24,000 bases of DNA from Polaromonas sp. (GTDB lineage Bacteria > Pseudomonadota > Gammaproteobacteria > Burkholderiales > Burkholderiaceae_C): the NCBI GenBank assembly GCA_043754255.1, contig JAYUVG010000167.1:39864-63863 (forward strand), given 5' to 3'. Of the stretch, positions 4,551-16,732 are shown piece by piece. The position numbers and the translations under genes were made by a program. The first letter of the stretch is position 1, and each line of letters opens with the position of its first letter. Below the pieces are notes generated by a model. It made no database searches. It saw only the letters and a program-made list of their open reading frames with translations, and was not told the DNA's origin.

Positions 4551-5853
4551 TCTTTCTGCACCCACTGGCCTGCTGGATAGAAAAACCGCCGCCCTTGTAT
4601 TTTTGGCTTTTGCTGGTGCGTATTGTTTGTCAGCACTGGTGCGCGCCATCATCGCCACGCTGTCACCTGTGCTCAGTCAAGAGTTCTCCCTTCAATCGCG
4701 TGACCTGGGGCTGCTGGCGGGCGGTTATTTTTTGGGCTTTGCAGCTACGCAATTGCCGCTCGGCACCTGGCTCGACCGGCATGGGCCCAAGCGCGTCATC
4801 GTCTGCTTTCTGGCACTGGCGGTGGTGGGTTGCCTGGTGTTCTCAGTGGCCAGCAGCTTTGCGGGGCTGCTGGCTGGCCGGGTGCTGATTGGCATGGGGG
4901 TCAGCGCCTGCCTGATGGCGCCGCTGAGTGGCTTTCGGCGCTGGCTGGACGCGCCCAGTTTGTTGCGGGCCAATTCCTGGATGCTGATGAGTGGCTCGCT
5001 GGGCATGCTGGCGTCTACCCTGCCGGTGCAGTGGCTGCTGCCGCAAGTAGGCTGGCGGGCGTTGTTTTGGGGCTTGGCAGCTTTGGTGTTTGTGGCCATG
5101 CTGGTGATTGCATGGGTGGTGCCGAAATGGGCTATTGCCCCCACGCTTGTCGCTTCGCGTACTACGCTGCCCCCCAAGGGGGCTAATTTTTCTAAAGGCG
5201 GCTTGTCGAAAAATTCTCGTCCAACAGCTTTAGATGAGGGGTACGCAGAAGTCTGGAAAAGCCGCTATTTCCGGAAGTTGTCACCGCTGGCGTTTTTTAA
5301 CTACGGTGGTCTGGTCGCTGTGCAGACGCTGTGGGCCGGCCCATGGATGGTCAAGGTGGCGGGCTACACACCGCTTGAAGCGGCCACCGGGCTTTTTTAT
5401 ATCAACGCGGTCATGCTGCTGACCTTCTGGACATGGGGTTTGGTGAATCCGCGCCTGGCCAGAGCCGGCTGGCACACCGACCGGCTGATCGCCTGGGGCG
5501 TTCCCATCAGCCTGCTGGTGCTGGCTGCCAATATTTGGGGCGGCTCAGCAACCGGCTGGCTGGGTTGGGCGGCGTTTTGTGTGGCGTCCACCGTTATCAG
5601 CCTGTCGCAGCCCGCTGTCGGCATGGCATTTAAACCGGCACTGGCTGGCCGGGCGTTGTCGGCCTTTAACCTGGTTATTTTTGCGGGGGTGTTTACCGTG
5701 CAGTGGGGCATTGGCCTGCTGGTAGATGCGTTTGCCGCGCTGGGCCTGGCCCCTGTTGCCAGCTTTCAGGCAGCTTTTGGTGTGTTTTTGTGTTGTTGTA
5801 CGGCTGCGTATGTCTATTTTTTGCGCGTGAAAGTCGATAATTCAACCCCATGA
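4543..5853 (+). CDS. MFS transporter
   Basis: 436 aa with about 12 hydrophobic segments and a polar central loop. The motif GTWLDRHGPKRV follows TM2 (MFS D-R/K-x-G-R-R/K-like). The start is uncertain: TTG at 4543 overlaps the lipoprotein stop. The stop overlaps the next gene's ATG (ATGA at 5850-5853). Confidence 0.85.
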   Translation: MNNLSAPTGLLDRKTAALVFLAFAGAYCLSALVRAIIATLSPVLSQEFSLQSRDLGLLAGGYFLGFAATQLPLGTWLDRHGPKRVIVCFLALAVVGCLVFSVASSFAGLLAGRVLIGMGVSACLMAPLSGFRRWLDAPSLLRANSWMLMSGSLGMLASTLPVQWLLPQVGWRALFWGLAALVFVAMLVIAWVVPKWAIAPTLVASRTTLPPKGANFSKGGLSKNSRPTALDEGYAEVWKSRYFRKLSPLAFFNYGGLVAVQTLWAGPWMVKVAGYTPLEAATGLFYINAVMLLTFWTWGLVNPRLARAGWHTDRLIAWGVPISLLVLAANIWGGSATGWLGWAAFCVASTVISLSQPAVGMAFKPALAGRALSAFNLVIFAGVFTVQWGIGLLVDAFAALGLAPVASFQAAFGVFLCCCTAAYVYFLRVKVDNSTP

Positions 5854-6293
5854 ATGGAATTTTCATCATCGCCCACGCCCCGCTTGCATCGGCCTTGCGC
5901 GAATGTGTGCTGCATGTCTTTCCAGACAACCCTGCCGGTGTGGTGGCGCTCGACGTACAGCCCCATTTGCCGCCTGAAGAAACGCTGGCCCAGGCAAGCG
6001 TCCTGTTTAAACAACTGGGCACGCCTGGTGTGCTGGTTTTGAGCGACGTGTTCGGTGCCACGCCTTGCAACGTGGCGCAAAAGTTGGTCGATGGTGTCCG
6101 TTCAAAACTGATTGCAGGCGTTAATTTGCCGATGCTGCTGCGCAGTGTGTGCTACCGAAACGAGCCGCTGGACGCGCTGATTGTGCGGGCGCTGGCCGGT
6201 GGCACACAGGGCGTGATGCAGGTTGCCATCACCGCACCACAAAATCAAGCCAAAAGAAAACATGATTCAAACGACCACGACCATCAGCAATAA
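5850..6293 (+). CDS. PTS EIIA component, mannose/fructose family
   Basis: 147 aa. MNGIFIIAHAPLASAL has a His at the position of the phospho-His of EIIA-Man type domains. The gene lies directly upstream of HPr and EI. Confidence 0.8.
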   Translation: MNGIFIIAHAPLASALRECVLHVFPDNPAGVVALDVQPHLPPEETLAQASVLFKQLGTPGVLVLSDVFGATPCNVAQKLVDGVRSKLIAGVNLPMLLRSVCYRNEPLDALIVRALAGGTQGVMQVAITAPQNQAKRKHDSNDHDHQQ

Positions 6294-8600: not shown

Positions 8601-9338
8601 TTAATCAAACCCATGCAGCAAGCGGCGTGCATTTTCTGCGCACAGTGCGCGCAGCTCAGCGCTTAATTGAACATCAACGCCAGCTTGCTGCCAATAGTCA
8701 ACAGCCCAACTTCGTGCCAGTCCAGCCTCAGCTGCATAGCCCACGGGTAGCCGGATTTCGCGCAGCGGCGATGGGTCAAGGTTGCCGCTGTGGATGTCGG
8801 GTCGCCACATCATCGGCAGCATGTCGTATACCGGTGCGAGCCGAATTTTCGGCGCATTGACATCGTCCACATAAAACGAGAGATTTCCCGAATGCATATC
8901 GGTGTTGCCGATGTAGTGGCCAAAAGCAAAAATGCAGGCAATTTGCTGCAACTCGTGCGGCGTTATCAAGCCTTTTTGCGCCAGAGCGGCGGCGGTATGC
9001 ACCCAGTTTTGCCAGGGGCCGCCGACAAATTCATCGTGAACGGCGGCAATCGCCACAACGTGATGTTTGTCCTCTATACCGATCCGGTCAAAGCGCAGAG
9101 ATTCCAGATAACTGCGCTGGGTGACGTGCAAGACCTGCGTTGGCGTGGCGTCTACGCCATGTTGAATCAAAGTGCGCAACGCCAACGCCTCAAGTATCAG
9201 CAAATCCCGCCACCTGTCCCCAAAGGGTGTGCCGTGAGGCGGTGTGTGCCTGACGATGCAATGCTCCCGGCTCTGATTGCCTGAGTATTCCGACAGAAAT
9301 TCTGGCTGTTCGCCCCCGGCGCTAGAGCCGGCTGACAA
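8601..9338 (-). CDS. HipA-like Ser/Thr kinase core (YjjJ/HipH-like); possibly frameshift-separated from its N-terminal HTH
   Basis: 245-aa ORF. GGEQPEF is a GxQxK-type loop and GNTDMHSGNLSF is the D-x-H-x-x-N catalytic loop of HipA_C. The only start is TTG at 9338, with no SD. An HTH-like 58-aa ORF ends 17 nt inside it in another frame. Confidence 0.7.
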   Translation of the reverse strand: MSAGSSAGGEQPEFLSEYSGNQSREHCIVRHTPPHGTPFGDRWRDLLILEALALRTLIQHGVDATPTQVLHVTQRSYLESLRFDRIGIEDKHHVVAIAAVHDEFVGGPWQNWVHTAAALAQKGLITPHELQQIACIFAFGHYIGNTDMHSGNLSFYVDDVNAPKIRLAPVYDMLPMMWRPDIHSGNLDPSPLREIRLPVGYAAEAGLARSWAVDYWQQAGVDVQLSAELRALCAENARRLLHGFD

Positions 9339-10584: not shown

Positions 10585-11367
10585 TTAGGGTGCAAGGTAG
10601 CTGACAAGCTTTTGACTGAAGACATCAGCAGCCTCTTGCCAGCCCACTGAAACACCGATTGTACGAAGGTCAACCGTTTGCAAACCCGCGTAGCCGCAGG
10701 GGTTGATGCGCGAGAAGGGTTCCAGGTCCATCGCCACATTCAGCGCCACGCCGTGGTAGGTGCAGTGGCGGCTGACCTTGATGCCGAGGGCGGCGATTTT
10801 GCCGAGGCCGGCAAATGCGGGGTCAGCGAAATTGGGGTCAGAGCCACTTCGCTTCGCTACGGGATCCGACCCCAATTTCGCGGTGCGGGGAGGGGGCAGC
10901 ATGGCATGAGAAAACGGATCATCCAGCCGCACATAAATCCCTGGCGCGCCACGTACCCGATGCCCTGTCACGCCAAAATGCGCCAGCGTGCGAATCACTG
11001 CTTCTTCCACCCGATACACGTATTCTTTAACGTAATAGCCCGCCGCTTTCAAGTCAACCAGCGGATACGCCACAACCTGCCCCGGCCCATGAAACGTCAC
11101 CTGCCCACCCCGGTCGGTTTGCACAATCGGGATGTTGCCGGGGTTTAAAACGTGTTCAGTCTTGCCTGCCAGGCCCTGCGTAAAAACCGCTGGGTGCTCA
11201 CAAATCCATAGCTGGTTGCGCGCATTCTGTGCTGGCTGGAGGTCGATTTGACCATTATTTTGATCTGTTTTGGTGCTTCTGGCGGCGGTGTACGCCTGCA
11301 TGGCGGCCCATGTTGGCAGGTACTCGACTTGCCCGAGCTGGCGGACTTCCATGAACGGCTCGTTCAC
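10585..11367 (-). CDS. lipB: Octanoyltransferase LipB, with an internal repeat-derived insertion
   Basis: Contains [45 protein letters not shown] and INPCGY. The start is either GTG at 11367 (overlapping the res TGA as GTGA) or ATG at 11352 ([11 protein letters not shown]...). Confidence 0.9.
10826..10881. repeat. Palindromic element inside lipB (in frame)
   Basis: GCGAAATTGGGGTC (10826-10839) and GACCCCAATTTCGC (10868-10881) are perfect 14-bp inverted arms. GGGGTCAG occurs twice (10818-10825 and 10834-10841). In LipB the element is translated as ..[20 protein letters not shown].. Confidence 0.7.
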
Positions 11368-14054
11368 CCCAACAGCCTGTCAAGTTGCCCAGACATGCCC
11401 ACGCCATCGTGGTCTTTGATGATCTGCCCAAACACACATTTGCCGCCGCTTTTGGCCGCCCACAACTCGCCAATTTGCCGCTTTTCAATCTCAAGTGGAA
11501 TATTGAGTAATTGCGCGCCTTTGTACTCAACGACGGCAATGCGCCCGTCTGTCAGCTCCGCTACAAAGTCCGGAAAAAACCGCCCGCGCGATGTGGCCAG
11601 TGCAAAGCCGCAAGGCTGCGTGACCAGATTGCGCACCCAGTGTTTGACAGAGTGGTGTTTGTCCAGCAGTTGCGCGCACAAAAACTCTTCGCCGTCGTCT
11701 TTCAGGTCAGCCAGCACCGGGTAGAAGTGTCTGTTGAACTGGTAGCGGCCTGCGTAACGCCCGCCAGCAGGCACCGGGTAGCGATTCGCCTCAAACAAAA
11801 GCGGGCGCGTCCAGTCGGGCTCAATCGTCCACTCGCCTTCAAGCACAAGCTGGCGAAATTGCGCTTTGGCGGCTTTGTCTTTCAGGTCGCCGACCCGTGC
11901 CTCAATGTCTTGAGCCAATTTGAATCGCGCTTTGACCAGGGTTGCCAGCGGCACGCCGCGCTCATGCATCAGGTGGCTGACGACGGCTGCAAAGTAGCTG
12001 CTGCGCTGGCCTTGCGTCAAATCGGGTAGCTTTTGAAACAGCGACTGGTCCAGCCAGCGCACCAAATCTTGCGCGGTGATGGTGGTGGAGCCATAGTCAA
12101 ACGCGATCTGGCTGGCGTCCGCCGCGCGCAGATTGACTTTGCTGTCTTTTAAATAAATCTCAAACGTATTGGACTGCTCCACCACCTGAAAGCCTGGCAA
12201 TGCAATCGCATCTGGGCTAAGTAAATCCAGCTCGACAGCTTCAAGCACCGCCTCACGCTCCAGCGGCCACAACTGGCCCTGCGGTGTGCTGCGGTAGCCC
12301 AGCGTGGGCACGGGCGCAAAGCGCGCACCGCGCGATGCGGGCGCGGCCTGGGCGGCAACCAGCGCGTTGTGCTGCGCGACTTTGGCAACGACCAGCTCCT
12401 GCTTTTTGGCACCGCGCACCTGCGCCACCAACAGCGCTTCCAGCTCCAGACTGATGTGGCCGGTGACGACGAGGTTTTGCTCACCGGCAATTTGCATGAC
12501 TTCAACACCAGCGGCATGGCGCAACTCCTCTGACGGCGCAGGTGCTATAAAATTAGTAGCTGTTTGCGCAGTATTTATGTCGGCTAGAGGCTCATTTGAT
12601 GTATAAAACTGATCGAAAAGGGGCAAATTGGACTGCTGCACCACCATCGACGCCACATCCAGCGCCTCAAAACCCATGTTGTTGATGAGCCTGTCGGCCA
12701 GCTCATGCGCAGCGGTTGAAAACTTGGCCTCGCAGACGTGTGCATATGCGCGATTGAGCGCTTCCCGCCCACGCGGGCTGGCATACGGCATGCGTAGCAC
12801 GCGGCCCAGCAGCTGCTCCACCGCAGTCGCGCTTGACAGCTTTTGCAGCGAACACAGCACGTAGGCAAACGGGCAGTCCCAGCCTTCACGCAGCGCCTGC
12901 ACCGTAATCACAAAGCGCACCGGGCAGTCGCGGGACGACAAGTCCAGCCCCTCCAGCTCGCGCGTGTCGCCGGTGGCTACTTTGATCTGCTCAGGCGGTA
13001 TGTGCAGTTCGTCCTGCAGATGTTTGCGCAATGCCTCGGGCGGCACCTCATCGTTTTCGTTCTGGGCCTGAAACAGCACAATTGGCCGGACGTAGCCATT
13101 GCCTGCCGCTTCATCCTTCAACGCTTCGCTTTCCAGCGCGCGCTGGCTTTGTACCGCGGCAAACACCGCCTGCTGCCAGCCCTGCGGGTGCTCGGCCAGC
13201 GCAATCGGCAGCTTGATCATGCTTTCCGCCGCCAGCTCCTGCGCGCTGACGTGGTACAGCACATTGGTTTTGCCCGGGATGGGCGTAGCCGTCAGTTCCA
13301 AAATGGCGCTGGGGTTCAGGCGCTTCAGGGCGGTAAAGCTTTTGTCGGTTTTGGTGTTGTGCGCCTCGTCAACAATCAGCAGCGGCTCATGCAGTGCCAG
13401 CCAGTTGGCCAAGCTCCAGCGCGGCTGGTTGATGAAACCTGCCAGCACGCCGGTCTTGTCATGGGTTGCTTCATCAGGCGTGACCAACGCATCCGGCAAG
13501 CCGTGCAGCACCCGCAAACGCTGTTCATCACAGCCCTTGAAGTGCCGCTCAAAGCTTTCAGAAAAGCTGTACACATTGCGCTTGTCGGTGTCGTCCACCC
13601 GAAAGCTCTGAATGGTGGCTACCACCACCACGGCACGCTGGCCCCAGTCTGGCGGGGCAATATTTGCCAAATCCTCCAGCACACACACCCGCACGCCGCT
13701 GCCGTAGCTGGCCTCCAGCGCCTCACGGTACGGGTGGCCAGCGGTTTGCAGCGCTTTAAGCGTCTGGCTGCGAATCGTGTCACTCGGCACCAGCCACACC
13801 GCCACCGGCGCATCGGTAGCGCGCCATTCCTGCGCCAACACATTCACAGCATGCGCCGCCATCAGCGTTTTGCCGCCGCCGGTGGGGATGCGCAGGCAAA
13901 TGCACGGCACCTGGCCAAAAGGGTCAGCGTTGTAAGGCCGCCCCACCGCTTCGCCAAAAGCCATGGCCGCGCCTTTTAACTGGGCTGACCGGGCAAATGC
14001 CCGCAGCGCGTCTAGCGCGGCTTGCTGGTAGGACTTGAGGGTAAGGGTGGTCAT
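11364..14054 (-). CDS. res: Type III restriction enzyme Res subunit (SF2 helicase plus PD-(D/E)xK nuclease)
   Basis: 896 aa. The helicase motifs are [21 protein letters not shown] and [10 protein letters not shown]. The C-terminal [17 protein letters not shown] is a PD..ExK nuclease motif. Confidence 0.9.
12543..12606. repeat. Copy 4 of the ~62-bp dispersed repeat, in frame inside res
   Basis: TGCTATAAAATTAGTAGCTGTTTGCGCAGTATTTATGTCGGCTAGAGGCTCATTTGATGTATAA. By my hand alignment 47 of the first 58 nt match copy 2. The rc is translated within Res as ..[21 protein letters not shown].. Confidence 0.75.
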
Positions 14055-14059
14055 TTGTT

Positions 14060-14088
14060 TTGCAGAACAGTGGTTTACGGATTAAAAT
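14060..14088 (+). promoter_or_regulatory. Sigma70-like promoter motif P1 (antisense to the operon)
   Basis: TTGCAG (14060-14065) - 17 nt - TAAAAT (14083-14088). It is 23/29 identical to the motif at 14260-14288. The -35 box lies 6 nt from the res start codon, on the opposite strand. Confidence 0.35.
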
Positions 14089-14259
14089 GCTGGTGTGGGA
14101 ACAAAAATCGGCTTCATGCCGTGAGAATGCAAAGCGCAGGTAACTGGGTAGCGCACTCCTATATTCCCACCCCTTTTCTATTTTGTCTCCGCAGCTTCCG
14201 TCCCACACCAGGCGACTAGAGCCAAAATGTCGTGGATGCTGCGGGGCCTCTTCTCTACT

Positions 14260-14288
14260 TTGCTAAATATTGCTTTACCGATTAAAAT
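14260..14288 (+). promoter_or_regulatory. Sigma70-like promoter motif P2 (antisense to the operon)
   Basis: TTGCTA (14260-14265) - 17 nt - TAAAAT (14283-14288). It lies exactly 200 bp downstream of P1 and shares the core TTTACnGATTAAAAT. Confidence 0.35.
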
Positions 14289-14295
14289 CTATTCT

Positions 14296-14372
14296 CACCC
14301 GCGAAGTCGTTTCGGACGTTAAGAGAAGGGGGCGAAAGCCAGCATGCACTCGTCGCGGGTGTACTTTTTATT
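14296..14372 (+). ncRNA. Candidate small structured RNA downstream of P2 (hypothetical)
   Basis: The 9-bp perfect stem CACCCGCGA (14296-14304) / TCGCGGGTG (14353-14361) starts about 7 nt after the P2 -10 box. It encloses GGC-GAAA-GCC (14331-14340) and is followed by TACTTTTTATT. There is no ORF with an RBS. This rests on sequence shape only, with no transcript evidence. Confidence 0.22.
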
Positions 14373-14387
14373 CAGGCACATCATTAT

Positions 14388-14933
14388 TCAGGCGCTCCAG
14401 GCGCCTTTTTTCTTGCGTAATGAATCCGTGGCAACCAGTTTGTGCTTGCCCCGAATTTCTTCAATGTGTCGGTAGCCTATGCCGTCAATCACTTTCACAA
14501 ATACGATCACGTTGCGGCCAATCTTGTTTTTGCCGTCTGCAAATACATTGTCTGGCTCTGACGTAATCACCAGGATTTTTTCAAAATCTTCCAATGTGAC
14601 AGCGATCTGACCGCGTTGGCTCTCTTGCTTGGCGTTGCCGTGCTGTTTGATGGTGTGGCGCACGCCGTAGTTGTCAAGAACGCGGGTGAACCCGGTCACA
14701 TCCAGCCCTGTTTTTTGCAGGATGAGTGGCGCGTTATCAACGTGGCCCAACGATACAAACGTTCGCCTGTCTGCAATCTGCATGGCTTGTTGTGCAAATT
14801 GGGTAATCGTCTCTTTAATGGAGTTGTCTTTGCTATGACCAGTTTCTTTTTTATTCTGCATGGGTTCAAATTTTTGGGTCGATGATTTGAATGTATCGGC
14901 CAATTGCCGACACCATGCGATAAATCGACACAC
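14388..14933 (-). CDS. Unknown protein between mod and res; candidate nuclease/toxin-like domain
   Basis: The track ORF is 181 aa from GTG at 14933. The first ATG at 14861 gives 157 aa (MQNKKETGHSKDN...). Neither start has a clear SD. It contains GVRHTIKQHGNAKQESQRGQIAVTLEDFEKI. The region is visibly more AT-rich than res or the 5' part of mod. Confidence 0.6.
   Translation of the reverse strand: MCRFIAWCRQLADTFKSSTQKFEPMQNKKETGHSKDNSIKETITQFAQQAMQIADRRTFVSLGHVDNAPLILQKTGLDVTGFTRVLDNYGVRHTIKQHGNAKQESQRGQIAVTLEDFEKILVITSEPDNVFADGKNKIGRNVIVFVKVIDGIGYRHIEEIRGKHKLVATDSLRKKKGAWSA
14390..14411 (+). terminator. Intrinsic-terminator-like hairpin on the + strand
   Basis: A-GGCGC-TCCAG-GCGCC-TTTTTT: a 5-6 bp GC stem followed by T6. 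It lies inside the last 8 codons of the minus-strand ORF, so it fits only a + strand (antisense) transcript. Confidence 0.4.
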
Positions 14934-14941
14934 CTGCGCTA

Positions 14942-16732
14942 CTACCGCCCCTTCACGTCATACGGTATGTGCTTGAACGTCACGTTCGCCTGCTTCAGGC
15001 GCTCTGCGCCCAGGCGGCAGGCTTCGCCGTAGACGAGTAGCGGGGCTTGGGGTTCTGGGGTGGTAGCGTGGAGGGCTAGCAGGGCTGCAAGCACATCGCG
15101 GGTGAGGACGTTGCCGCTGGCGGGGCGTTTGTCGCCTAATATGCCGTTGTAGAGCAGATAGCAGGCGAATTTGGGTGTTTTTATATGCTCAATCTGGCTG
15201 TAGCCGACATGATCAGCGCGCAAGCAGCTATTAATTTCATAGTACGTGCCCAGGTACGGCGTGCCGGGTTTGGCAGATGTTGCATCGAAGGACGCGCCGG
15301 TTTCTTGCTGCCAGACGAAGGCAGCCAGGGTTGCAAAGCGCACGGCCGGGTTGATGCGGCCTTGCTCGTCAAACACCGCCTCACCCAGCCGCATGAACCT
15401 GAAGCCGCCGCCGTGAAATGGCTCGCCGTTTCTTCCAGCTCCCCAGCCCACGGCTTTGCTGATGCCGCCTTGTTCGCCGTCGATGACTTTTTGCAGGCGC
15501 GGGGCGCAGTGGGTGGCGGCGTGTTCGCCCATTTCAATGCCGATCCAGCGGCGGCGCATTTTGTGGGCGACGGCGGCAGTGGTGCCTGAGCCGAGGAAGG
15601 AGTCGAGGATGAGGTCGTTTTCGTTGGTGGCTATGTGGAGGATGCGCTGAATCAGGCGCTCTGGTTTTGGGGTGTCAAAAGCATCACCTGCACCAAACAG
15701 TTCATTGATTTCTTTTTTAGCCTCCTGGTTGTGCCCAACTTCAGCGTTTGACCACCAGCTCCAGGAGTTTTGGCCTTCCATTTCACTCAAATAGCGCTTT
15801 AGTCGTGGCCTGGCGGTTCCATCTTTGCCAAACCAAACCCGATTTTCGGCAATTAGCTTCAAAAAGGTTGATTCTGCAAGAGCCCAGCATCTACCTGCGG
15901 GCGGCGCATGTGCGGTTCCGTTTGGCGCGATGACTGTGTAAAACTGGCTCGGAGTAGCATGGCCTGTCATGCCAGTGAAGTCTGTCGATGCCCAGGCACC
16001 ACGCGGGTCAGCGTCTGGATTTTTAAAGTCTTTTGCGCGTTCCTGGTTGATTTGTAGTTGATTAAAGTTTTCTTTCAAGGAATTATTTTTCTTGAAAACC
16101 AGGATGTGATCATGAGCGTCACCCAGTCGCAATCTGTTGTCTGTGGAGGTACGTTTTTGCCAAACGACATTCGCAACAAAATTCCCCCGCCCAAACACCT
16201 CATCCATCAACACCTTGAGGTAATGGCCTTCGTTGTCGTCAATCGTCACCCAGATGCTGCCGTCTTCCCGCAGCAGCTCGCGCAGCAGTTGCAGGCGCGG
16301 CAGCATCATGCTGAGCCACTGGGCATGTTCGAGGTTGTCGTCGTAGTGCTCAAACGCGCTTTTGGTGTTGTAGGGCGGGTCAATGAAGATGCATTTGACC
16401 TGGCCGCGGTAAAAGGGGAGCAGGGCTTTGAGGGCTTCGAGGTTGTCGCCCTGGATTAGGAGGTTGTCTTGGGTGGTGGGTGGAGAAGGGGTGCGGGGAG
16501 AGCCCTGTCTTGCAGACCGCTGGTCAGTCAGAGCCTGACCTTCTTCACGCTGTCCAGAAGCGCTCAAGCGCTCCTGGAGCCGCAGCGTGAAGCCCCCGCC
16601 CTCTCCCAGAGGGAGAGGGAGTTTGACGCCTGGGAAGGGAACATGTACAGACACCTGCTCCAGCAGCCGGTATGGCACGCGGGCAGAGGCGGTGAAGGCG
16701 CTTTGGCGGTTGAGCCAGTCTAAGGTGGGCAT
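14942..16732 (-). CDS. mod: Type III R-M DNA methyltransferase Mod (beta-class N6-adenine/N4-cytosine MTase)
   Basis: 596 aa. IFIDPPYNT (motif IV) precedes DSFLGSGTTAAVA (motif I), which is the beta-class order, with a TRD-sized region between them. The N-terminus PTLDWLNRQ...VPYRLL...NLLIQGDNLEALKAL is typical of Mod. Confidence 0.9.
   Translation of the reverse strand: MPTLDWLNRQSAFTASARVPYRLLEQVSVHVPFPGVKLPLPLGEGGGFTLRLQERLSASGQREEGQALTDQRSARQGSPRTPSPPTTQDNLLIQGDNLEALKALLPFYRGQVKCIFIDPPYNTKSAFEHYDDNLEHAQWLSMMLPRLQLLRELLREDGSIWVTIDDNEGHYLKVLMDEVFGRGNFVANVVWQKRTSTDNRLRLGDAHDHILVFKKNNSLKENFNQLQINQERAKDFKNPDADPRGAWASTDFTGMTGHATPSQFYTVIAPNGTAHAPPAGRCWALAESTFLKLIAENRVWFGKDGTARPRLKRYLSEMEGQNSWSWWSNAEVGHNQEAKKEINELFGAGDAFDTPKPERLIQRILHIATNENDLILDSFLGSGTTAAVAHKMRRRWIGIEMGEHAATHCAPRLQKVIDGEQGGISKAVGWGAGRNGEPFHGGGFRFMRLGEAVFDEQGRINPAVRFATLAAFVWQQETGASFDATSAKPGTPYLGTYYEINSCLRADHVGYSQIEHIKTPKFACYLLYNGILGDKRPASGNVLTRDVLAALLALHATTPEPQAPLLVYGEACRLGAERLKQANVTFKHIPYDVKGR
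16599..16619. repeat. Perfect palindrome CCCTCTCCC-AGA-GGGAGAGGG inside mod
   Basis: Translated as LPLPLGEG within a low-complexity stretch of about 57 aa (nt 16472-16642). It is accompanied by GGTCAG-N7-CTGACC (16532-16550). Confidence 0.6.

Follow-up and report, generated by a model that had tools for sequence, protein, structure and literature searches.

RNA antitoxins are already known, as are RNA motifs associated with DUF3800 genes. In type I toxin-antitoxin systems such as txpA/RatA and bsrG/SR4 of B. subtilis, RalR/RalA of E. coli rac, and SymE/SymR, a small RNA convergent with or antisense to the toxin gene is complementary to part of the toxin mRNA; the RalR and SymE toxins are nucleases, not membrane peptides. 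The type III systems (ToxIN, CptIN, TenpIN) are phage-related and neutralize an endoribonuclease toxin with a dedicated RNA that binds it. Type III antitoxins are tandem repeats located upstream of the toxin gene and on its strand, with a terminator between the two, and are cut out by the toxin. Eleven unrelated structured RNA motifs (DUF3800-I to -XI) lie beside DUF3800 genes on either strand, several of them with terminators, and their function is unexplained (Weinberg et al. 2017, PMC5737381; Rfam RF02969, RF02968, and others). PBECR domains, which occur solo, in polyvalent proteins, or fused to MuF, are predicted to have the BECR fold and to act as metal-independent RNases (passages in Iyer et al. 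2017, PMC5512222). Here we analyze a 24,000-nt stretch of DNA from Polaromonas sp. (contig JAYUVG010000167.1, positions 39,864–63,863; hereafter, the window), in which a 333-nt gap separates a PBECR3 gene from the restriction gene (res) of a type III restriction-modification (R-M) operon. We think it rather probable that the gap holds small-RNA modules antisense to the operon and that the RNA of one of them, module A, is an antitoxin or immunity factor restraining the PBECR3 nuclease in the cell that encodes it.

Judging from its sequence, module A is an intact small-RNA gene, with promoter, structured domain, and terminator in succession, that is convergent with the PBECR3 gene:

14260–14288 (+): P2, sigma70-like promoter of the module A RNA (TTGCTA-N17-TAAAAT), with a predicted start at ~14295–14296
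14296–14361 (+): structured RNA domain of module A, 66 nt, from the 16-sequence alignment A2
14296–14304/14353–14361, outer stem of module A; 14308–14311/14315–14318, hairpin; 14323–14325/14349–14351, short stem; 14331–14340, GNRA hairpin
14390–14411 (+): intrinsic terminator of the module A RNA, within the final 8 PBECR3 codons (KKKGAWSA*)
14388–14861 (−): PBECR3 gene, 157 aa from its ATG, a predicted BECR-fold RNase (Pfam PF18812, E 1.3e-18) carried as cargo between mod and res

Module A lies behind every PBECR3 gene collected (18 distinct copies), and the link to a toxin-like open reading frame (ORF) proposed in the preliminary description of the gap is thus real. The contexts include type III R-M operons, prophage stretches where Phage_tail_S and a PBECR1 polyvalent protein are present, and phage contigs with MuF-PBECR3 genes, and the metagenome, viral, and prophage loci include ones without R-M genes. 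An nhmmer search of the collected loci recovered no module A away from PBECR3, and cultured phage and plasmid collections gave no match to the module. Our searches found 84 PBECR3 homologues. The PBECR3 proteins are 58–80% identical and come from genomes (L006, L028, L047; locus numbers are those of our comparison set of ~70 related loci, numbered up to L079), metagenomes (L049–L057), viral contigs (L058–L060, L069), and assemblies reached via protein homologues (L061–L065). PBECR3 is the C-terminal domain of 286–527-aa proteins in L054, L058, L059, L060, and L069, with a Pfam Phage_Mu_F domain alongside it in L059 and L060, and the N-termini of solo and MuF-fused PBECR3 genes are completely different. 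Because module A still trails the MuF-fused versions, it travels with the PBECR3 domain and not with a gene architecture.

RNAalifold analysis of 16 sequences yielded an outer stem of 9 bp, a CGUU-UCG-GACG hairpin, a stem of 3 bp, and a hairpin with a GNRA cap; the terminator hairpin comes next. In alignment A2, 98% of the cells are paired and 8 pairs have compensatory changes, a level that 0 of 500 shuffles reached, and the signal vanishes once the partners are slid. For example, the stem CACCCGCGA/UCGCGGGUG is swapped for CACAAGCGA/UCGCUUGUG or GAUCCGCGA/UCGCGGAUC, and the hairpin arms GGC/GCC become GCC/GGC or GUC/GAC, while the loops GUUGAGAGAAGGGG and CAGCAUGCAC are invariant. The terminator hairpin also covaries (GGCGC/GCGCC, GGAGC/GCUCC, GGCCCC/GGGGCC), with changes in its 3' arm that alter the encoded PBECR3 residues. 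Furthermore, its U run coincides with the KKK codons of PBECR3 and is kept in 16 homologues. The preliminary description had drawn attention to the perfect 14296–14304/14353–14361 stem with its internal GGC-GAAA-GCC hairpin and had suggested a search for covariation, which proved positive for this stem as well as for the CCGCAGC/GCTGCGG pair of module B. It had also read GGCGC-TCCAG-GCGCC-T6 (14391–14411) as a + strand terminator within the last 8 codons of the − strand ORF at 14388–14861, a reading that we share: a terminator is called at 14390–14406 plus the T run, and a GC-rich hairpin followed by a U run is present at 14390–14411 on the + strand. Every string quoted in that description occurs where it was placed.

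A −10 box precedes the module A stem at a fixed distance in 18/18 copies (TAAAAT, TAGAAT, TACAAT, TATACT, and others), even when the flanks are unrelated, and L053, L059, and L061–L063 have a perfect TTGACA −35 element. A full promoter-like site ending 5–10 nt before the stem is found in 14 of the 18 copies, versus 29 of 1460 random positions (2%). The fixed −10 box and the outcome of this promoter test identify P2 as the predicted promoter of a conserved small-RNA gene, ~117 nt long in the window. The positions of P2 and of the terminator are conserved in all homologues. Of the two 3' ends originally envisaged for the P2 RNA, the one at 14411 is the conserved one, and the earlier T run (14364–14372) is not conserved.

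The same structures could instead act on the − strand, within the operon mRNA, as stabilizers or processing sites in the PBECR3 3'-untranslated region or as a 5' leader of res, with no separate RNA being made. They fold on the − strand too, with similar energies, the operon transcript necessarily crosses the modules, and the promoter-like 29-mer next to res could be its translation-initiation region. However, G-U pairs would turn into A-C on that strand in 12 of 16 sequences at the module A hairpin, at an invariant G-U pair of module B that is compatible with the + strand only, and in 5 of 11 in module C. The module A alignment has 18 G-U cells versus 2 A-C/C-A cells, which favors the + strand, and a hairpin plus U run makes a terminator on the + strand only. 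The + strand −10 box, often with TTGACA and always at the same distance from the stem, also argues against a − strand role, which we regard as quite improbable. Comparative evidence thus makes + strand RNAs, as first proposed, the best reading of the gap. Small ORFs are present in the gap and none is conserved among homologues. One of them, in module A, has a Shine-Dalgarno-like GAGAAGG and an AUG at 14344; this AUG is absent in 2 of 16 homologues (L049, L058), the frame is not kept, and the linker gaps are not multiples of three, and we rejected a small protein-coding gene.

A role for the module A RNA as an antitoxin or immunity factor is plausible from its sequence and context. The P2 transcript would start at ~14295, carry the 66-nt structured domain, and end at the 14390–14411 terminator. 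We favor a route in which the conserved structured domain binds the PBECR3 protein directly, as in type III systems. Despite the divergence of the proteins, 53 columns of the RNA domain are invariant, which argues for recognition by a protein or other factor over antisense pairing, as a cis-antisense RNA has no such need. As in type III systems, an endoribonuclease toxin would be neutralized by a dedicated binding RNA, which for module A is suggested by the invariant core and the strict co-occurrence with PBECR3. Unlike the type III antitoxins, module A exists in one copy, lies downstream of PBECR3 in convergent orientation, and has a predicted promoter of its own; the only direct repeat is the 29-mer. 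The likeness to type I systems lies in the terminator, which is antisense to the final 8 codons and stop of PBECR3. The 3' overlap with the end of the mRNA and its stop codon may therefore add an antisense effect, and a more speculative antisense route would be cleavage upstream of the stop codon. Yet the overlap is limited to the terminator (~25 nt) unless the mRNA reads through, and the domain outside the overlap is nearly invariant and structured, two properties for which cis-antisense control has no need. The U-rich linker and terminator of module A, we presume, resemble those of Hfq-binding small RNAs.

The PBECR3 domain itself matches the pattern described for MuF polymorphic toxins and PBECR polyvalent proteins, in that it is found solo or fused to MuF head proteins, which are probably injected by phages (passages in Jamet et al. 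2017, PMC5576092, which also cite RalR/RalA, and in Iyer et al. 2017, PMC5512222); L059 and L060 encode this very fusion. The usual antagonist of a polymorphic toxin is an immunity protein (PMC12226406). By contrast, this PBECR3 clade has an RNA gene as its constant neighbor. In the window, L006, and L028, where PBECR3 is embedded in an R-M operon, the interval between it and res contains no ORF and, therefore, no protein immunity gene. The passages searched in PMC5576092 and PMC5512222 mention no RNA partner for PBECR. Module A looks like an undescribed RNA antidote or cofactor for PBECR3, and its RNA may explain the proteobacterial MuF proteins that have C-terminal domains and no immunity gene.

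The operon that hosts module A reads, on the − strand, Fic (PADLOC SoFic), mod, PBECR3, the 333-nt gap, res, lipB, and lipA. The two R-M genes are:

14942–16732 (−): mod, type III methyltransferase, upstream of PBECR3 (Pfam N6_N4_Mtase; PADLOC MTase_III, E 1e-176)
11364–14054 (−): res, type III restriction subunit (Pfam ResIII; PADLOC REase_III, E 5.5e-206)

A homology search with Res retrieved the same order (Fic-mod-[gap]-res-lipB-lipA) in 48 loci from Polaromonas, Rhodoferax, and relatives. The distance from mod to res ranges from ~10 bp (L012) to 2.9 kb across the syntenic loci, and the cargo varies by locus. The commonest is an AlbA_2/HATPase_c_4 protein of ~570 aa; others are DUF3800 (~270 aa), MuF_C, an HTH+PIN_10 pair, PBECR3, or nothing (L012), and L018 carries DUF3800 and AlbA_2 together. 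These differences in length and content mark the mod-res junction as a cargo-exchange hotspot.

The remainder of the gap contains two further modules and a second promoter-like sequence:

14060–14088 (+): P1, second promoter-like 29-mer (TTGCAG-N17-TAAAAT), 6 nt from the res ATG and at the usual position of a module C promoter
14095–14170 (+): module C, a three-way-junction RNA domain, here an orphan without its own terminator (nhmmer matches; alignments A3 and A6)
14185–14248 (+): module B, with an invariant 36-nt core (14199–14234) and a closing stem (14187–14195/14238–14246), from alignment A4

Like the published DUF3800 motifs, module C is a covarying RNA that adjoins DUF3800 genes, in 8 related kinds of locus (L011, L013, L018, L021, L022, L073–L079). 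It lies directly past the stop of each DUF3800 gene found in the mod-res slot (L011, L013, L018, L021, L022) and, elsewhere, accompanies DUF3800 in Ottowia testudinis (L073), in L075–L079, and in a Rubrivivax locus without R-M genes (L074). Unlike those motifs, it matches none of the eleven published DUF3800 RNA models or other Rfam families (cmscan, E up to 10), the window has no DUF3800 gene, and modules A and B accompany either other genes or no gene. The module C pattern and the DUF3800 protein had no match in viral contigs. Its alignments are 95–98% paired; the one of 8 sequences has 6 compensatory pairs and the one of 11 sequences has 11, values that 0 of 500 shuffles reached. The outer stem appears as GUGGGGA/UCCCCAC, GUGAGGA/UCCUCAC, GUGGGAA/UUCCCAC (window), and CCGGAAA/UUUCCGG (L074). 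The DUF3800-linked copies each have a strong + strand promoter (TTGACA-N18-TACAAT in L022) and a strong terminator, AAGCCGCU...AGCGGCUUUUU, in the final DUF3800 codons (KKKPLP...GAAS*). Module C and DUF3800 therefore share the layout of module A, in which the RNA gene converges on its protein-coding neighbor and has its terminator within that neighbor's final codons. Module C is an orphan in the window, in L047, and in L064/65; the L064 copy has the promoter TTGACA-N16-TACACT. In the window, the end of the P1 −10 box is 6 nt from the module C stem, versus 7–9 nt in the DUF3800 loci. The window copy has compensatory changes of its own, which suggests that its structure is still under selection.

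Several observations accompany module C. A perfect DnaA-box-like sequence, TTATCCACA, lies between the −35 and −10 elements of the module C promoter in L011, L013, L018, L022, L047, L073, and L075, loci from several genera, and is absent from P1 in the window. In L064 (4560–4680) and L065, the last 13 DUF3800 codons (MKKPLPELTGAAS*) remain between module A and the orphan module C, with the terminator intact, and a short stretch resembles the 5' end of res (ATGACCAATTCCACCCTAA versus ATGACTGAATTCACCCTAA). These remnants look like scars of cargo replacement. We also identified another type III R-M family, whose genes run HTH_3/Peptidase_M78, mod, DUF3800, res and in which module C too lies between mod and res (L073, Ottowia testudinis CP071796.1; L075–L079). 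The mod-DUF3800-RNA-res arrangement thus recurs outside the Fic-linked locus.

Module B combines an invariant core, CGUCCCACACCAGGC-AAUNAGA-GCCAAAAUGUCGUG in six aligned copies, with an 11–13-bp closing stem that is wholly different between copies. This stem is the CCGCAGC/GCTGCGG pair of the preliminary description, which extends to 11 nt at 91%. Alignment A4 is 95.5% paired, with 11 compensatory pairs in 6 sequences (0 of 500 shuffles). In the window, the U tail is degraded (CCUCUUCUCUACUUUG). Other copies occupy the slot behind MuF_C (L005), behind AlbA_2 (L014/15), and before an opposite-strand 279-aa ORF (L048). Pattern searches located the core in two viral contigs, between two tRNA-Gly genes of a 30-tRNA array (L070, 6371–6404, −) and behind a T4-like portal and prohead protease (L071, 1121–1154), and BLAST found the module in an unannotated intergenic region of Aeromonas phage 62AhydR11PP (L072, MH179474.1, 1801–1836), behind TTGACA-N17-TAGGAT. 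No Rfam match to module B was found. A strict MuF_C-module B pairing was considered and discarded, as it holds in L005 only and the phage copies are beside portal and protease genes or in a tRNA array. In L005, the MuF_C gene (5423–5890) is followed by module B, as PBECR3 is by module A in the window, and both proteins begin with MQNK. MuF_C and PBECR3 have both been placed in the PBECR clade (passage in PMC5512222).

Modules B and C bear on the origin of the two 29-mers. These sequences (14060–14088 and 14260–14288) are, as first described, 23/29 identical (24/30 as 14059–14088 and 14259–14288), with starts 200 bp apart. Their common 15-mer, TTTACSGATTAAAAT, is present at two positions of the window, where chance would give 0.02 occurrences. 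In a promoter scan of 13500–15200, both score 9/12 on the + strand, and no − strand promoter was predicted. P1 and P2 have the sigma70-type arrangement of upstream hexamers 16–18 nt apart that the module C copies display as TTGACA-N16-18-TACAAT/TACACT. BLAST comparisons of the spacer with the slot loci returned piecewise matches, with different loci matching different pieces. In L006, module A is followed by a single 29-mer and then the res ATG; L005 has the same arrangement with module B in place of module A. Between P1 and the L006 copy, 2 of 37 positions differ, and P2 is more diverged. Parts of the 29-mer stretch also adjoin res in alleles with other cargo (L001, L002, L008, L023, L042). 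The window thus holds the promoter-like stretch next to res twice, with modules C and B separating the copies, and the 200-bp offset is incidental. Modules C and B came in by cargo exchange in the mod-res slot, which duplicated the 29-mer as well, so that the offset is a product of mosaic recombination.

This history changes part of the original interpretation. The nested design seen in the gap dissolves into three unrelated modules joined by recombination, and the exact 200-bp spacing has no functional meaning, as L005 and L006 have one 29-mer only. The 11-bp inverted repeat (14090–14100/14201–14211) is indeed perfect; nevertheless, it is not a conserved helix: one arm lies at the 5' end of module C and the other in the invariant core of module B, and other module C copies have different bases at the former arm. 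The repeat could form an alternative pairing within the P1 transcript. That transcript, starting at ~14095, would be a chimera of modules C and B, two orphans whose usual partner genes are not in the window.

A mosaic of this kind could also mean that the modules are sites in the DNA, either recombination or cassette junctions or remnants of small mobile elements that mark cargo swaps. The slot is a recombination hotspot, whose junctions are mosaic and in which the 29-mer is duplicated, and L064 retains the final 13 DUF3800 codons beside an orphan module C. Folded single-stranded DNA sites such as integron attC also covary. Against such sites, the window and loci contain no integrase or transposase, each module is present once per window and locus, with no further copies in the 24 kb, and no terminal inverted repeats, target duplications, or attC core sites were found. 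An insertion sequence or MITE, the origin that the preliminary description had named as fatal to its proposal, had no match either. DNA sites would also leave the conserved promoter and terminator geometry unexplained, and we consider them very improbable. By-eye readings of a hammerhead-like core, an attC site, and a sigma54 promoter were discarded because motifs or spacing were absent.

The position of the RNAs raises the prospect that they mainly control R-M, with transcription from P1 and P2 colliding or pairing with mod read-through and thereby delaying or limiting res. R-M systems need delayed restriction, res lacks a predicted − strand promoter in the spacer and so depends on read-through, P1 abuts the res ATG, and the −35 half of the 29-mer is kept beside res despite different cargo (L001, L002, L008, L023). 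However, the anatomy of module A is unchanged in prophage and phage loci without mod or res, as is that of module C beside the stand-alone DUF3800 gene of L074, and module B is present in phages. Furthermore, in L012 mod and res are separated by 10 bp and an element of this sort is absent, and a brake does not need an invariant structured core. This makes R-M control an unlikely main function, and the antisense brake on res once suggested cannot be the primary role, as all three modules keep their anatomy outside R-M operons. A res brake is at most secondary: the modules occur in non-R-M contexts, so res control cannot be their main role. As a side effect, res expression is probably reduced too, since antisense transcription from P1 and P2 crosses the sole route into res, a gene for which no separate promoter is predicted.

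Several points weigh against the assignment of module A as an antitoxin for PBECR3. The module A RNA might instead serve as a substrate or cofactor, or it might regulate something else. The toxicity and RNase activity of PBECR3 are predictions from the Pfam match and passages of PMC5512222, and a Foldseek search with the AF2 model (pLDDT 90) gave no significant match in the PDB. P1 and P2 have weak −35 boxes (4/6), and the proposed promoters and terminators are consensus matches supported by conservation. Part of the conservation of the 29-mer may serve res on the − strand, as the stretch is kept beside res in alleles with other cargo. Module B lacks a consistent partner gene and has few copies (a MuF_C neighbor in one locus, alone in phages). 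Finally, single-sequence folding energies are ordinary (z −1.5 to −2.3). Such modest z-scores, together with a count of terminator-like sequences in the region that does not exceed that of shuffles, are what one would expect if the repeats and stems were functionless chance features of an AT-richer intergenic region. The case for conservation beyond chance comes from the comparison with the ~70 loci and not from thermodynamics: all three modules are conserved in many loci with compensatory changes, and no shuffle reaches the observed covariation. These comparative data refute the chance explanation, whose likelihood we put close to nil.

The parallel between modules A and C invites a broader proposal, which we consider possible and somewhat doubtful. 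Phage-type nuclease domains (PBECR3 and the RNase H-like DUF3800) would each be governed by a dedicated structured RNA, convergent with the protein gene and with its terminator in the final codons of that gene. This RNA would serve as an antitoxin or immunity factor in place of a protein immunity gene, and orphan modules such as C and B would be retained in the mod-res interval as a defense against invading elements that encode the corresponding nuclease. If true, this would define a new architectural class of RNA-protein toxin/immunity pair and give a function to the long-unexplained DUF3800 RNA motifs.

The PBECR3-linked RNA, a further DUF3800-linked RNA, and the phage-borne module B appear to be undescribed in Rfam 15 and the searched literature, as do the layout with a terminator in the last codons and the side-by-side presence of cognate and orphan RNA genes in the mod-res interval. 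Rfam 15 gave no hit at gathering thresholds for the window and 11 loci and, at E up to 10 (window, loci, and four focused regions), terminator-driven chance hits only (e.g., isrK, suhB, GcvB). PBECR domains are widespread predicted phage RNases without a known regulator, and the strictly linked RNA gene is a testable partner. The layout shared with DUF3800 (convergent RNA, terminator in C-terminal KKK codons) offers a way into an RNA function that has been open since 2017. For annotation, the "spacer" of an R-M operon can conceal several RNA genes.

AlbA_2-type cargo alleles have allele-specific short direct repeats (TTATCCAAT, TTATCCGAAAA, GTTGTTTAAAC, TTAACCGAAAAA) in the final 150 nt before res (L001, L003, L004, L008, L009, L016, L023, L024, L035–L040), followed by a constant AAATCAAnnACTTA. 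The repeats look like operator sites that co-vary with the cargo protein. A scan of the whole window for tRNA and tmRNA genes found none, and exact-protein look-ups returned no record for the window PBECR3, Res, and P0001. The stop of res overlaps the start of lipB (11364–11367; lipB at 10585–11367), and in L064 the Fic-mod-...-res block lies between a DUF493 gene and lipB. The operon is thus a defense island that is wedged into a housekeeping cluster and that is itself syntenic in many species. Further along the − strand (8601–9338), a 245-aa ORF matches the HipA C-terminal kinase domain only (Pfam HipA_C, E 4.7e-18) and may be a truncated or split HipA-type toxin gene.

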